32,086 nt of DNA from Patescibacteria group bacterium. GTDB taxonomy: Bacteria > Patescibacteriota > Minisyncoccia > Minisyncoccales > GWA2-38-27. Below, piece by piece: positions 3,001 to 32,086 of the stretch. The notes below the pieces were generated by a model that saw nothing but the letters and a program-made list of their open reading frames with translations, was not told the origin of the DNA and made no database searches. The position numbers and the translations under genes were made by a program. The DNA lies in assembly GCA_020148045.1 (NCBI GenBank), contig JAHCRG010000003.1, positions 1 to 32,086 of the forward strand. Reading direction: 5' to 3'. The stretch's first letter is position 1, and each line of letters begins with the position of its first letter.

Positions 3001-3902
3001 TGCGAATAACAAGTGCTGGCAAAGTCGGCATCGGGGATACAAGCCCTGATTATATATTTACTGTTGATCATAATGGCGATGGTGTTAATGTTGCCTATGT
3101 TAGTGATACTAACGCATGGACAAATGGTTTAGCTGATTATGCTGAATATTATTACACCAAAGACACTGATTTAGAGTCAGGCGAAGTGGTTTGTGTTGAT
3201 ATTGAACAAAAGAATACAGTAAAGCGCTGTGAACATTCTGCAGACAGCAATTTAATAGGTATTGTTTCAACTCAGCCAGCATTTTTAGGAAATGCACCAA
3301 GTGAAGAACATAGAGAGGAGGACCCAAATTATGTAATAATTGGAATGATAGGACAAGTTTTAACGAAAATCAGCACAGAAAATGGTGCTATTGAGCCAGG
3401 TGATTATCTAACTTCTTCTTCTATCCCAGGAGTAGCAATGAAAGCCACTGAATCGGGCCCAGCTATTGGAAAAGCTTTGGAGCCATATAACTCAGATGAA
3501 ATAGGCAATATTATGGTCTTTCTTAATCTCGGTTGGTATGGTGGGGAGCTTGCTGGAGATGGTTTGATAGACAACGGAGACAATGGAGAACCTGAAGTCA
3601 CAATTAGTGAATCTTTTATTCAGAAAGTAAAGCAAGCCCTCGCTTCGCTCGGGCTATTTATTCAAGATGGTATCGCTCAAGTAAAAGAGATTATTACAGA
3701 AAAATTATTTGTTAGAACAGCAAGAATTGAAAAAATGGAAATGGTTGACCAAAGAACCGGTGATATTTACTGCACCTGGATTGAGAATGGCGAAATGAAA
3801 AGAGTAAGAGGAGAGTGCTCAACAATAGGATTTAGTGATAGTTCAGATGACAATGACCAAACCGGGTATGGAGAAGGCCAGACCGGGTATGGAGGGGCTT
3901 AA
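3..3902 (+). CDS. Giant modular surface/tail-fibre-like protein, 5'-truncated; VGIG-bounded beta modules, YadA-head-like repeats, C-terminal intramolecular chaperone/autoproteolytic (peptidase G2-like) domain
   Basis: Frame is open from base 3 (YDGDENITIIALP...), so ATG108 is probably internal. Seven VGIG motifs, (T/A)AS..S/AVAMG repeats at ~2320-2670, and ADYAEYY...GIVST.P...GDYLTSS..PG.AMKA...IGKAL at 3132-3537; stop TAA at 3900-3902. Confidence 0.75.
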   Translation, partial: YDGDENITIIALPTANLNTTDDYIIKYDAASDDFQMEADAGGAGDVESVGDCLTGACLDGSADGGTYIRIYDGDSHYLEINPGDITADRIVNFRDAAGTVLLSGDTLTGDITATFDTDGSTATALANDTVAVAEFLASQDWGDMSTDADGLVTLDTGVVDTTAIADDTILEADLNVDEVVADNDILTFDTTGSNFSWQTPSELITAGDDISWTGTTLNVTDSWWDALTDMVLTDTYIYVGNDSNDPVGVAMSNDCTMANTGAITCDHDALDNYVAAEHVDWAAASAGTIHTDNYIENATHTGDVTGATALTIGNDKVLEVHLKAVNAGVDEYCLTYETTTGDFEWQTCGAGATTFVGLTDTPADYTGAAKKVTVVNESADAIAFASNLYWDETNDRVGIGTTSPSSTLDIWQPASGDILNVSSSTAGDLLTIDNNGNVGIGDTTPSQELSVTGDGLFSENLGVHGGSVNSTYGVTIGTVGNWERGVDITINGDSGMSSSYGIYNYIHDSNAASHGVYNDVVVSGGGGVGYGISNHITVSGLSAIGYGIRNYILTSDDANTQTVYAFQAELKTFSGADDKAYGTHIVDWADTSTGGTQYGLYVDLDDAEVTNYSIYVEDGSGISYFGSNVGIGDTDPDFGLEIAASSTTGYLAVSSASSTDGDLFIIDEAGSVGIGTTSPSSTLDIWQPASGDILNVSSSTAGDLLTIDNSGNVGIGTTSPSSTLHVVDGAILASGTTGSTPVSGTGNRLMWIPAKAAFRAGVAISPKWDDANIGYNSMATGQGTTASADGSVAMGSGEGGIGPTASGLGSVAMGYGNVTASSNYAVAMGVGTAASGTASVAMGYETTASGPFSFAIGREIEAQGDYSVAIALSDQDGAVVSQSNTMAIMGGKVGIGTTTPDEILLVASEDVTVIAAQRSSADTYTSGFNTRKSRGTLGSPALVASGDYLGSIAARGYDGSSWLAGGAIYVLATGTPSASNMPADMIFSTNEGGDFPTEHMRITSAGKVGIGDTSPDYIFTVDHNGDGVNVAYVSDTNAWTNGLADYAEYYYTKDTDLESGEVVCVDIEQKNTVKRCEHSADSNLIGIVSTQPAFLGNAPSEEHREEDPNYVIIGMIGQVLTKISTENGAIEPGDYLTSSSIPGVAMKATESGPAIGKALEPYNSDEIGNIMVFLNLGWYGGELAGDGLIDNGDNGEPEVTISESFIQKVKQALASLGLFIQDGIAQVKEIITEKLFVRTARIEKMEMVDQRTGDIYCTWIENGEMKRVRGECSTIGFSDSSDDNDQTGYGEGQTGYGGA
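1191..1325 (+). repeat. Intragenic direct repeat copy 1 (135 nt; copy 2 at 2016-2150)
   Basis: Offset 825 nt; 3 mismatches over 135 nt, and only 1 over 1200-1325 vs 2025-2150. Encodes VGIGTTSPSSTLDIWQPASGDILNVSSSTAGDLLTIDN.GNVGIG. Confidence 0.95.
2016..2173 (+). repeat. Intragenic direct repeat copy 2, plus a third partial copy (2139-2173, identical to 1191-1225)
   Basis: Direct sequence comparison. Confidence 0.95.
3635..3655. repeat. Short palindromic element within CDS (AGCCC-TCGCTTCGCTC-GGGCT)
   Basis: 5-bp stem around an 11-mer that is the reverse complement of GAGCGAAGCGA at 30388-30398. Confidence 0.6.
3858..3899 (+). repeat. 21-nt tandem duplication encoding QTGYGEG/QTGYGGA at the C-terminus
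   Basis: ACCGGGTATGGAG at 3861-3873 and 3882-3894. Confidence 0.85.
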
Positions 3903-3968
3903 AAGCTTGATTTTTATGGAAGATTAACGTAATGTAAATAATAAATCTATTAAAATGCGTAAAAAAAA

Positions 3969-29384: not shown

Positions 29385-29393
29385 AGATTACTT

Positions 29394-32086
29394 ATGGAAA
29401 AGGATGTTATTAAAATTCGGGGGGCTAAGGTTCATAATCTAAAGAATATTAATATTGATATTCCCAGGAATAAATTGGTGGTGATTACCGGGATTTCAGG
29501 TTCCGGCAAGTCCTCCTTGGCTTTTGATACTTTATATGCTGAAGGGCAGAGAAGATATGTTGAAAGCTTGTCTGCCTACGCCAGGCAGTTTTTAGGAGTA
29601 ATGGATAAGCCCGAGGTAGAAAGAATTGAAGGGGTAAGTCCGGCTATTTCTATTGACCAAAGAAAAGCAGCTCATAACCCCCGTTCCACAGTGGGCACAA
29701 TAACGGAGATTTACGATTATCTCCGTCTTTTATTTGCCAGAGTTGGAAAGCCCCACTGTCCAAAATGTAAAAAGCCAATTTCCCGGCAGACAGTTGACCA
29801 GATTGTTGAGCAGGTTTTGAAACTTCCTCAAAAATCAGAGATTACTGTTTTAGGTCCGGTAGTTCGTTCCCAAAAAGGAGAACATCAAGGGACTCTGGAG
29901 GAAATTCAAAGAGGAGGATTTGTTAGGGTAAGAGTTGATGGAATAATTTACAGGGTTGAAGAAATATTAGGAAAAAGTTTAGACAGAAATAAAAAACACA
30001 ATATTGAAGTAGTGGTGGATAGATTAGTGATTGGAGAGGACTTAGAAAAATCAAGATTGATTGATTCTTTGGAAATTGGCTTGAGGATCGGGAAAGGCAT
30101 AGTGACAGTAGGTCAGAGAACGAGGAACAAAGAACAAAGAACAAATGATTTAACATTTAGTGAGCGTTTTGCTTGTGAAGAATGCGGCATTTCTTTGCCT
30201 GAATTGGAGCCGCGTCTTTTTTCATTTAATAGTCCTTATGGTGCCTGCCTAGGATGTATGGGATTAGGTGAGAAATTAGAAGTTGACCCAAAGTTAATTA
30301 TTCCAAATCCAAACTTAACTATTGCTGAAGGAGCAATTAGGCCCTTGGTGCGGGCTTCAAATAAAATTGGCAGACGGAGTTATTTTCGAGCGAAGCGAGA
30401 AAATAAGGTTCTACCGAAGGCAGGTTCTTATTTTTGGTGGCAGCTTTCTGATTTAGCAAATAGATATAATTTTTCTTTGGACCAACCAGTTGGGACTTTG
30501 TCTGAGAAAATTTTAGATATTGTCCTTTACGGAAATAAAGATTTTGAAGGCGTAATTCCTAGTCTTGAAAGAAAGTATCATGAAACTAATTCCGACTGGA
30601 CCCGTCAGGAAATTGAACAGTATATGGTAAAAAGACAATGTCCCAAATGTTTGGGAAAAAGATTAAAACCAGAAGTGTTAGCGGTGACAGTAGCTGGCAA
30701 GTCAATTGATGAAATAGTAGGGATGCCAATCGATAAAGTAAAAGTTTTTTTTGGAGTCAGACCCGAGTCTGACCCCAAAGTGGCTCAGCCTATAATTAAG
30801 GAAATTCTAAGTCGCCTTCAATTTTTAATTGATGTTGGGCTTGATTATTTAACTTTGGACAGGAAAGCCGCTACCTTGGCCGGCGGCGAGGAAGAAAGGA
30901 TAAGATTAGCCACCCAAATTGGTTCAAAATTAACTGGAGTTTTATATATTTTAGATGAGCCCTCAATAGGTCTTCATCCAAGAGACCAGGGAAGATTGAT
31001 TGGGACACTTAAAAAATTAAGAGATCTTGGCAATACGGTAATTATCGTTGAGCACGATAATCAAACCATTCGCGCGGCTGACTGGGTAATTGACGTTGGT
31101 CCCGGAGCAGGAAAGCACGGCGGCCGGATTGTTTTTAAGGGGACACCAAAACAATTACTAAAGTCAAAAACTTTAACAGGTGAATATTTATCAGGGCGGA
31201 AGAGGGTTGAAGTGACGTCAGAAAAATCAAAAATCAAAACTCCCGTCTCCGCTAAAGCTTCGGCGGGCAAGCAAAACTATTTAATAATTAAAGGGGCTCA
31301 GGAGCATAATCTAAAAAATATTGATGTTAGAATTCCGCTTGGTAAATTTGTTTGTATAACTGGAGTTTCTGGGTCAGGGAAAAGCTCTCTAATGGATGAT
31401 ATTTTAGCCCGAGCTTTGCTTAAAAAATTTTACAAAACAAAAGAAGAGCCAGGTAAACACAAGAAGATTTTAGGCAGTGAGTTTTTAAATAAGGTTGTTT
31501 TAGTTGACCAATCCCCAATTGGTCGAACGCCCCGTTCTGATCCAGCAACTTATACTGGCGCCTTTTCTTACATCAGAGAACTTTTTTCAAAGACCCGGGA
31601 AGCCAGAGTTAGGGGCTATTCGCCCGGCCGTTTTAGTTTTAATGTGAAAGGCGGTAGGTGCGAGGCCTGTGAAGGTCAAGGCCGGATTAAAGTTGAAATG
31701 TATTTTTTGCCAGATGTTTATGTTGAATGTAAAGAATGCAAGGGAAAAAGATATAATAAAGAAGCCCTTGAAATTGAATACAAGGGAAAAAACATTGCTG
31801 AGGTTTTAGAAATGACAGTTGAAGAAGCCTTAGATTTTTTCAAAAACATCCCTGGTCTTTCCCAGAAATTAAAAACCTTAAATGAAGTTGGCCTATCCTA
31901 TGTTCAACTTGGACAGCCGGCCCCCTCTTTATCTGGAGGAGAAGCCCAAAGAGTAAAATTAGCTACTGAGCTTTCCAGAAAGTCCACTGGTAAAACTTTA
32001 TATATCTTAGACGAACCAACAACTGGTCTTCACCCGGATGATATTAAAAAATTGATTAAGGTCTTAAGAGAATTAGTTAATAAAGG
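29394..32086 (+). CDS. uvrA: Excinuclease ABC subunit UvrA, 3'-truncated by the window edge (absent from the ORF track)
   Basis: [18 protein letters not shown]...[28 protein letters not shown]; second Walker [30 protein letters not shown] in the same frame at the window end. Confidence 0.98.
30114..30148 (+). repeat. Heptamer tandem repeat (CAAAGAA-like x5) in uvrA
   Basis: CAGAGAA CGAGGAA CAAAGAA CAAAGAA CAAATGA, encoding [11 protein letters not shown]. Confidence 0.7.
30380..30434. mobile_element. 48-nt in-frame palindromic insertion in uvrA flanked by a TTATTTT direct repeat
   Basis: TTATTTTC-GAGCGAAGCGA-GAAAATAA hairpin plus CTACC-GAA-GGCAG; TTATTTT at 30380 and 30428; peptide [19 protein letters not shown]. 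Confidence 0.7.
30750..30779. repeat. Palindrome inside uvrA
   Basis: TTTGG-A-GTCAGAC-CCGA-GTCTGAC-C-CCAAA, encoding GVRPESDPK. Confidence 0.75.
31222..31272. repeat. Heptamer repeat (AAAAATC x2 + AAAACTC) followed by a GC-rich palindrome in the uvrA linker
   Basis: CCCGTC-TCCGCTAAAGCTTC-GGCGGG at 31242-31267, encoding PVSAKASAG. Confidence 0.75.

Follow-up and report, generated by a model that had tools for sequence, protein, structure and literature searches.

Short palindromic insertions in essential genes of a Patescibacteria genome, with a small GIY-YIG nuclease as candidate mover

The hairpins that lie in and between the genes of this DNA are a mixture of two proven insertions, members of repeat families, and sequences that are not insertions. 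We consider it fairly probable that the window, the whole stretch of 32,086 nucleotides analysed here (part of assembly G000), holds the in-frame survivors of gene-less mini-elements, likely moved in trans by nucleases that act on single-stranded DNA, together with hairpins likely made in place by template switching. Besides the two proven insertions, another four sites are members of repeat families or look like them. From the open reading frames, the inserts would be translated as peptides.

An earlier sequence-only reading had listed twelve hairpins in the window, and 12 of 12 lie where it put them; several of these (5097, 14609, 31242) are weak or pair imperfectly. Across the genome, perfect stems within open reading frames exceed what is seen in synonymous-codon shuffles. 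Stems of at least 10 bp number 46 (12-21 in eight shuffles), stems of at least 12 bp number 12 (0-4 in eight shuffles), and GC-rich stems of at least 10 bp number 9 (0-2 in eight shuffles). The genome as a whole has 123 stems of at least 10 bp, of which 67 are intergenic, though intergenic DNA makes up only about 10% of it, so that the majority of long hairpins lie outside genes. The idea that the motifs recur across the genome proved correct for GAGCGAAGCGA, with 7 copies where 0.108 are expected, and for the SAKAS-type family, with 7 sites in this assembly, all 7 within open reading frames. It failed for six flagged hairpins (rpoB, rpoC 11497, ftsK, uvrA 30750 and the intergenic 23259 and 28663), for which the genome holds no second full-length copy at about 20% mismatch. 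The broader proposal, that several palindrome families have spread and are carried in frame even in RNA polymerase, is upheld by two empty alleles and by four families that recur across the order or beyond. Fourteen of the 29 clean indels between this genome and G019 fold better than shuffles; direct repeats of at least 3 nt are present at 7 of these 14, modestly above the 29% null. An Rfam search returned one tRNA and nothing else.

One of the proven insertions lies in rpoC:

12713..12716, plus strand, left copy of the target duplication, CGAG, 3 of 4 letters identical to the right copy
12717..12775, no strand assigned, 59-nt MITE, whose ends CCCCGTTAG...CTAACGGGG are the ends of the TIR-GIY-YIG unit
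12776..12779, plus strand, right copy of the target duplication, CGGG; in the empty allele 12712 is joined to 12776

The element and one duplication copy make up 63 nt, or 21 extra codons, and precisely this stretch is missing from contigs of the runs X2, X3 and X9 (3 of 4 runs), which come from three other studies. One of the empty-allele contigs has 6 differences in 259 nt, and a different contig carries the filled allele. As expected of a MITE, the element has terminal inverted repeats (TIRs), encodes nothing itself, and shows an empty allele and a target duplication that matches in three of four letters here and is exact in many family members. It belongs to a subfamily of 57-59 nt found in G000, G019, G008 and G065. 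A cognate element with a transposase was not seen in a search for larger elements made by eye in one genome, and the longer unit codes only for a GIY-YIG protein (Pfam PF01541). By its ends, the rpoC element is a gene-less derivative of this unit.

The sole gene of the unit, which is about 280 bp long, encodes a GIY-YIG nuclease of about 85 amino acids. Of 95 distinct GIY-YIG loci, whose flanks are unrelated, 79 have both ends, and the unit length is 275-318 bp in 72 of 72 cases. An exact duplication of at least 4 nt is found at 56 of the 72 units, against a mean of 16 and a maximum of 24 under shuffled pairing; with the common TGAA target left out, the count is 26 of 37 (mean 2.8, maximum 9). 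Thirteen of the 72 units have no exact duplication. Gene-less copies have a duplication of at least 3 nt in 17 of 43 cases (mean 5, maximum 12), and target duplications of 4-6 nt occur at many rpoC-family sites. The nuclease has a median pairwise dN/dS of 0.085, and the fold's Tyr, Arg and Glu residues are conserved; by a rough test, about 12 of 79 units seem broken. Among PDB sequences its only match was a weak one, 1ZG2 (E 0.019), and the plasmid set searched held no such unit. One genome carries both the unit and a short copy, with end sequences common to the two, and a 59-nt copy was found within one unit (L572). GNA triloops are confined to one strand (37 of 71 versus 0 of 71), which fits strand-specific recognition of single-stranded DNA.

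Terminal inverted repeats with a 4-nt duplication are also the classic footprint of DDE transposases, and the short copies might be ordinary MITEs moved by an unseen enzyme of that kind, the GIY-YIG gene being cargo kept for some other benefit. As this would predict, no close unit is present in the majority of genomes that have short copies; among five genomes rich in short copies, a close full unit is present in G095 only, and it has an internal stop. Nevertheless, the explanation appears unlikely. The 72 units all fall in the same narrow length range, different GIY-YIG clades bear different ends, and strong purifying selection acts on the gene at sites unrelated to one another. Moreover, in G095, where one unit and 166 matches to the ends (control, 1) were counted, inspection by eye of the first 100 of the 166 revealed no two that clearly face inward at the spacing of a transposon.

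The second proven insertion is in uvrA, at 30380, where several other sites were noted:

30123..30143, plus strand, in-frame heptamer tandem repeat, part of a stretch of 11 extra codons relative to G019
30380..30434, minus strand, double-hairpin insert, 48 nt net and in frame, with a 7-nt direct repeat at 30380-30386 and 30428-30434
30750..30779, no strand assigned, hairpin of two GTC(A/T)GACC tips that replaces a variable UvrA loop at unchanged length
31222..31242, plus strand, heptamer tandem repeat beside the PASAK hairpin
31242..31271, plus strand, PASAKASAG-type hairpin in a variable UvrA linker, with 7 sites in G000 and a variant also in G019

The insert at 30380 is a AATAAGAACC-hairpin-AGAACCTTG family unit that includes the GAGCGAAGCGA tip. 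It is missing from 19 of 19 other UvrA sequences, with a clean empty site in G019, and is present in a contig of 98.5% identity. The AATAAGAACC family occurs in 48 of 201 genomes and has 0 matches in viral contigs; no helper was found among the neighbours of 30 loci, in 16 further regions or at 20 further GIY-YIG loci. Fold-back synthesis, with arms copied from the target around a fixed cap, was considered for this insert and dropped, because the whole unit belongs to the family and has the same short motif at both ends. PASAK-type stretches number about 180 across many phyla, and 120 such loci have no recurring neighbour gene. The PASAK tip does occur at both ends of GIY-YIG cassettes at tRNA ends, and the five best members of a second GIY-YIG clade, together with L576, carry a PASAK/SEALA hairpin at both ends. 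The UvrA inserts may sit in loops: in an alignment-based model their regions have pLDDT below 50, as do conserved parts, and a single-sequence model was unusable (pLDDT 35).

The absence of a mobiliser from the window, remarked on earlier, extends to the whole assembly. Searches of G000 (97.9% complete, 23 contigs) for the Y1_Tnp, GIY-YIG and four-helix-bundle families found none, and neither did custom RAYT and GIY-YIG profiles run on its six frames. The closest sampled relative has both kinds of helper, and small single-domain GIY-YIG genes flanked by their own repeats occur in relatives and not in G000. RAYT-like genes are found in 77 of 151 genomes, flanked by tips that occur solo in G000; the three in G019 score 33-77 bits, under the NF047646 cut-off of 80. 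That all families are REP-like and were spread by RAYT/HUH transposases would agree with this distribution, since the flanking tips match uvrA 30750 and two families of G000. The GTC(A/T)GACC tip is seen at 6 of 27 RAYT-like loci, and the uvrA 30750 hairpin is single-copy in G000. Yet none of the 27 loci has rpoC, PASAK or AATAAGAACC ends adjoining the gene, and the genes next to such ends are GIY-YIG genes or show no recurrence. The tip of uvrA 30750 and the hairpins of two families found mainly between genes were observed beside a Y1/HUH gene; those of rpoC 12717, uvrA 30380 and uvrA 31242 were not. We therefore regard RAYT/HUH transposases as a quite improbable explanation for all families; the earlier attribution to them gives way to a small GIY-YIG nuclease as the helper tied to two families.

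The remaining sites of insertion or of intergenic hairpins are more varied:

5097..5134, plus strand, probable decayed head-to-head PASAK-family pair (SAKAS and SEALSKDE) in a loop of a TPR membrane protein
14609..14629, plus strand, 7-codon FtsK insertion with a weak, unconserved hairpin
18328..18358, minus strand, diverged member of the TCCGCC-N4-GGCGGA double-hairpin family in the RpsF tail
23256..23293, no strand assigned, intergenic hairpin from the suhB stop codon, TAAA on both sides, decayed in G019
28663..28698, no strand assigned, hairpin directly before the start of a solute-binding-protein gene, single copy, arms changed in step in G019

The assignment of the TPR pair to the PASAK family is probable from its resemblance, by eye, to two cassette ends; the loop has equal length and another sequence in G019, and is shorter in more distant relatives. 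The TCCGCC family is present in 22 of 201 genomes, with a longer variant at rpsF in G019; no helper gene was found for it, and 30 loci include 1 adjacent GIY-YIG gene. The FtsK insertion, found in 12 of 20 sequences (all of the same family) and lacking in 8 from other families, is by this distribution old and family-wide. The geometry of the 23256 hairpin suggests that it is probably a MITE, now able to act as a terminator between convergent genes. Many copies lie at stop or start codons (stop codon, 9 of 30 versus 3 of 75 background), the arms at 28663 covary, and SsnA modulates transformation (PMC11893778), all of which would suit hairpins kept by the host to end transcription, stabilise mRNA or regulate DNA uptake, as with NTS/SsnA, with mobility incidental. 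However, copies within genes are restricted to particular lineages and vary among close relatives, and the folding asymmetry fits single-stranded DNA tips; a host function as the main cause is scarcely credible.

Three hairpins consist of native coding sequence:

3635..3655, no strand assigned, fibre protein hairpin, native ALASLGL in the 13-nt tip of the GAGCGAAGCGA family, no insertion
7361..7380, no strand assigned, rpoB hairpin, native WQRLPAL of RpoB, identical in G019, single copy, no insertion
11497..11522, no strand assigned, first rpoC hairpin, RpoC RARIRVRMRA, no insertion

The view of the hairpins as inserted elements thus stands for rpoC 12717 and uvrA 30380, with their clean empty alleles, and falls for these three, which are native and without an indel. 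In alignments to relatives, hairpin and indel coincide at the former two sites and not at three of the ten in-gene hairpins, the ftsK case being an old fixed insertion. At the fibre site, 20 homologous sequences have no indel, 3 of 20 have the same 13-mer, and the codon probability, computed post hoc, is 1.2e-5. At rpoC 11497, each of the four substitutions relative to G019 creates further pairing, with the stem growing from 7 to 11 bp, a pattern that template switching would be expected to leave. These clustered substitutions perfect a stem without an indel, like the quasi-palindrome mutations for which PMC5941160 reports support in Proteobacteria. Strong hairpins in indel-free coding DNA number 9, against 0-6 in 12 shuffles. 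The rpoB, rpoC 11497 and fibre hairpins probably arose in this way. Local template switching and slippage in tolerant loops, with no mobile elements, would account for rpoB, rpoC 11497, probably the fibre site, and copy-specific arms. It cannot explain why identical ends recur at unrelated loci in 27 to 48 of 201 genomes, why alleles differ by the presence or absence of exactly 63 nt, or why a nuclease cassette shares its ends with an element. As the sole cause it is refuted, and we rate it very unlikely; the process described in PMC5941160 covers three sites only.

In-frame palindromes as such are known from Rickettsia palindromic elements (RPE) and intragenic REPs. As summarised in PMC10969869, RPE are about 150 bp long, encode a conserved peptide and lie in frame in housekeeping genes. 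The present repeats likewise lie in frame in unrelated housekeeping genes, and between genes, but measure 25-63 nt, form several families and have candidate helpers in relatives. REPtrons and TIRtrons are Y1 tyrosine transposase genes (RAYT/TIRYT) flanked by hairpins, related hairpins lie inside replication and repair genes including uvrA, and a GGGGWSAS-type motif resembles the uvrA 30750 tip (PMC3733652). In contrast to these, the rpoC and uvrA 30380 elements lack a terminal GTAG/CGTC tag, as read from the sequences, two families flank GIY-YIG genes, and target duplications are present. SsnA cuts one strand next to a hairpin, and the Ssn system resembles the present one, by description, in its single-domain gene of about 90 amino acids, its own flanking repeats (NTS/SRM) and strand-specific hairpins (PMC11893778). 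Its authors suggest that the unit might be mobile; they report no transposition, and the words 'duplication' and 'Patescibacteria' are absent from the text. In the rpoC family, by contrast, a single inverted repeat encloses the gene, each end being one half of it, and many sites show duplications of 4-6 nt. Bacterial MITEs share the TIRs, the target duplication, the lack of a gene and the derivation from a longer element (PMC10969869); here the longer element has no transposase, and 'GIY' is absent from that review. The open-access main texts searched give no account of these elements in Patescibacteria, of a GIY-YIG element with TIRs and target duplication, or of a transposon-like unit with a hydrolytic GIY-YIG nuclease alone; the supplementary repeat lists of PMC11893778 and PMC3733652 may bear on this.

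We propose that the helper genes, no longer detectable in this assembly, encode small single-strand DNA nucleases. Where DNA is exposed as a single strand, the paired ends would fold; the cognate nuclease would cut next to the stem, and a copy would be joined at a staggered target, where host gap repair would make the duplication. Insertions would land widely, and those surviving in essential genes would be of a net length divisible by three, without a stop, in a tolerant loop. The helpers likely differ from family to family: the CCCCGTTAGA family would depend on one GIY-YIG clade and PASAK/SEALA on a second, the GTC(A/T)GACC and GAGAACAGTTCTC tips would be served by RAYT-like Y1 enzymes, and the AATAAGAACC family would have a further helper. 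GIY-YIG nucleases are hydrolytic enzymes, and to our knowledge no strand-joining step has been described for them. The helper role is open to doubt on the grounds that G000 has no helper, few genomes rich in short copies have a close full unit, and some duplications are imperfect; the nuclease is thus a candidate mover. The odds appear about even that Patescibacteria harbour autonomous transposons of about 280 bp, with clade-specific ends and a GIY-YIG protein of about 85 amino acids as sole product, whose MITEs of 29-60 nt add peptide loops to essential proteins, including RNA polymerase, among closely related strains.

If the nuclease is the mover, this would be DNA transposition with target duplication by a protein family that is not known to join strands, and the unit would be much shorter than the insertion sequences known to us. 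The exact filled and empty rpoC alleles are a ready substrate pair. Such a mechanism would give in-frame palindromic insertions a testable origin, of interest also for RPE and CGTC repeats, for which the literature searched names no mover. For annotation, it would account for lineage-specific low-complexity loops in Patescibacteria proteins.

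In rpoC, the hairpin at 12716 lies in a loop that is variable in most genomes among 30 aligned RpoC sequences. The window's copy, 59 nt long, belongs in diverged form to a subfamily of 57-59 nt, the alignment of which includes several loose chance matches. Across 201 genomes of the order, 27 contain the family that its ends define (control 0), and 21 stretches with such ends occur in viral contigs. The bases that flank the copy are nearly repeated:

rpoC element flanks: CGAG on the left, CGGG on the right

An empty allele, in which 12712 is joined to 12776 and exactly 63 nt are skipped, is present in contigs from three of the four other sequencing runs (X2, X3 and X9, from different studies). 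Over 259 nt, one of these contigs shows 6 differences; run X2 also contains another contig with the filled allele. Since the element is absent from the other 29 RpoC sequences and a duplication is present, we infer that the polymorphism reflects gain. A contig of run X2 departs from rpoC at 11423 into a CCCCGTAG-type end, which suggests that rpoC of a relative has a second site occupied by another element.

Inspection of the flanks of small GIY-YIG genes identified one (locus L246) that is bounded by the ends of the rpoC element. Among its relatives, both ends are found at 79 of 95 distinct loci, in unrelated contexts. The 72 units with scorable flanks are 275-318 bp long; exact duplications of 4-6 nt flank 56 of them (mean 16 and maximum 24 when pairings are shuffled), and 13 lack one. 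Where the common TGAA target is absent, 26 of 37 units carry the duplication, against a shuffled mean of 2.8. The right end rebuilds a GTG or ATG in 46 units, and in 41 of these the rebuilt start opens a frame of at least 60 codons or one reaching the end of the locus, so that many units sit on a host start codon. PF01541 is the sole domain of the unit, and the nuclease gene has a median pairwise dN/dS of 0.085 (1268 non-independent pairs). Literature searches found no description of a nuclease-only unit, and such a mobile unit is apparently undescribed. The GIY-YIG unit at L572 (G073:C7) harbours in its 5' end a 59-nt gene-less copy of its own family. Other units (among them L515, L516, L563 and L416) adjoin tRNA genes or genes for other RNAs on the 5' side, and their right end overlaps the first bases of the RNA.

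The sequence-only reading had proposed that palindromes colonise genes in frame throughout the window. All 12 flagged hairpins are present, and the phenomenon is real and of an already known kind, but it was overstated for 4 of the 10 in-gene sites. The hairpins at rpoB 7361 and rpoC 11497 encode native peptides without an indel (30 sequences each), and the latter differs from the closest sampled relative, G019 (median protein identity 84%, 398 reciprocal best hits), at four positions, each adding base pairs. The fibre hairpin at 3635 is the native ALASLGL motif of the protein; its 13-mer is identical in 3 of 20 homologous sequences, which may reflect descent or conversion. The fibre gene, which encodes a YadA head, also contains a 153-nt internal duplication (1188-1340 and 2013-2165, 93% identical). 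Of 20 FtsK sequences, 12 have a 7-codon insertion; the 12 come from a single family, and the hairpin there is not conserved. In G019, the loop of the TPR protein has the same length and a different sequence, and RpsF carries a longer variant of the rpsF element. In ychF (18659-19525; comparison locus L091), G019 has a 33-nt hairpin insertion with ends like those around another GIY-YIG clade, and the site in the genome under study (G000) is empty. A tRNA gene (26023-26105, minus strand) overlaps the ORF called for the next gene, a call that is too long.

Of the uvrA hairpins, the one at 30380-30434 is an insertion: it adds 16 residues, in G000 only among 20 UvrA sequences. At 30750 a variable loop is replaced with no added length, and at 31242 a variant form is common to G000 and G019. 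Read on the minus strand, the 48-nt insert at 30380-30434 belongs to a family of units that 48 of 201 genomes carry (control 0). Its units have an AATAA-like motif at start and end and are arranged in head-to-tail arrays. They overlap stop codons at 9 of 30 loci (background 3 of 75). G000 has 11 sites, the uvrA copy alone lying within an ORF, and in G019 an inserted member occupies a matching TATTT site of a different gene. Closed GNA triloops, a loop type of unusual stability in DNA, are confined to one strand: 37 of 71 distinct tips have them there, against 0 of 71 on the other. No helper gene was found for this family.

The hairpin at 31242 belongs to the PASAK/SEALA family, as probably does that of the TPR gene at 5097. 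About 180 stretches contain an exact 19-mer of the family; they come from Patescibacteria, Alphaproteobacteria, Acidobacteria, Bacteroidota and other groups. No neighbour gene recurs among 120 loci. L576 and the best five members of one GIY-YIG clade each have this tip on either side of a cassette of ~330-370 bp, located at a tRNA 3' end. In two close contigs, 79 different letters replace 31172-31271.

Y1 genes are present in 77 of 151 genomes; at 27 loci, their flanks carry the tip GAGAACAGTTCTC in six cases and GTC(A/T)GACC, from which the uvrA 30750 hairpin is built, in six. The GAGAACAGTTCTC family has 10 copies in G000, mostly intergenic. G019 has three RAYT-like genes, one of them following a gene after which G000 has a solo hairpin, a link that is suggestive only. 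In its long form, the AATAAGAACC family (G000 C12:23338, C20:77829, C20:110054 and others) ends in TTGATT, a 16-nt spacer and TATAAT, a sigma-70-like arrangement shortly before a start codon, and may carry a promoter between co-oriented genes. A separate family starting TTCTACCAAAAAATCGCC has 15 sites (G000 C17, C21, C22 and C23), all intergenic, most of them a few bases upstream of unrelated genes in cassette-like runs.

G000 comprises 825 kb (GC 36%, completeness 97.9%), and the window, which is the initial 32 kb of its contig C20, includes rpoB, rpoC, ftsK, recA, ssb, rpsF and uvrA among other genes. Its size and gene content, together with repeat families that also occur in named Patescibacteria records, indicate a member of the Patescibacteria. 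In 773 genes from simple ORF calls, perfect coding stems exceed those in eight synonymous-codon shuffles (at least 10 bp: 46 versus 12-21; at least 12 bp: 12 versus 0-4). The recurrence of GAGCGAAGCGA is likewise borne out genome-wide, with 7 copies against 0.108 expected. Most long stems (67 of 123) are intergenic, and thus a minority lies inside genes. Comparing G000 with G019, we surveyed clean indels 6-30 codons long (genes at least 70% identical, flanks at least 70% alike, others excluded): 14 of 29 fold at z <= -2, 12 of 29 fit a family pattern, and 7 of the 14 folding indels have direct repeats of at least 3 nt (null 29%). Over 325 genes, strong perfect coding hairpins are in excess both near indels or gene ends (6, shuffles 0-2) and away from them (9, shuffles 0-6); therefore insertion and in-place perfection of stems both contribute (for template-switch mutation, see PMC5941160). 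Heptamer tandem repeats, often in frame, occur at 30123-30143 and 31222-31242 and genome-wide. G000 has 17 exact triples of period 7 and none of periods 5, 8, 10 or 11, and the unit sequence varies by site. No four-helix-bundle gene was found in G000.

Small GIY-YIG proteins cut single-stranded DNA beside hairpins, according to PMC11893778, which also puts forward a mobile origin as a hypothesis. Intragenic REPs in uvrA and tyrosine transposases flanked by terminal inverted repeats are described in PMC3733652, and the Rickettsia palindromic elements are summarised in PMC10969869. For the present elements, the observed part of the mechanism consists of shared ends, duplications, empty alleles, selection on the nuclease gene and strand-asymmetric tips. 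The cognate nuclease would cut, and the element would be joined and the gap filled by the host. Gene-less copies might be served by the nuclease in trans, in-frame copies may be favoured by survival bias, and the inserts are presumably translated. No helper gene was detected in G000, and its copies are therefore either relics or were mobilised by a gene that the assembly does not include. While uvrA is present, a GIY-YIG domain was not detected anywhere in the assembly, so that uvrC is missing, unassembled or undetected. The rpoC element is a recent and well-documented insertion in RNA polymerase, tied to a nuclease-only mobile unit.
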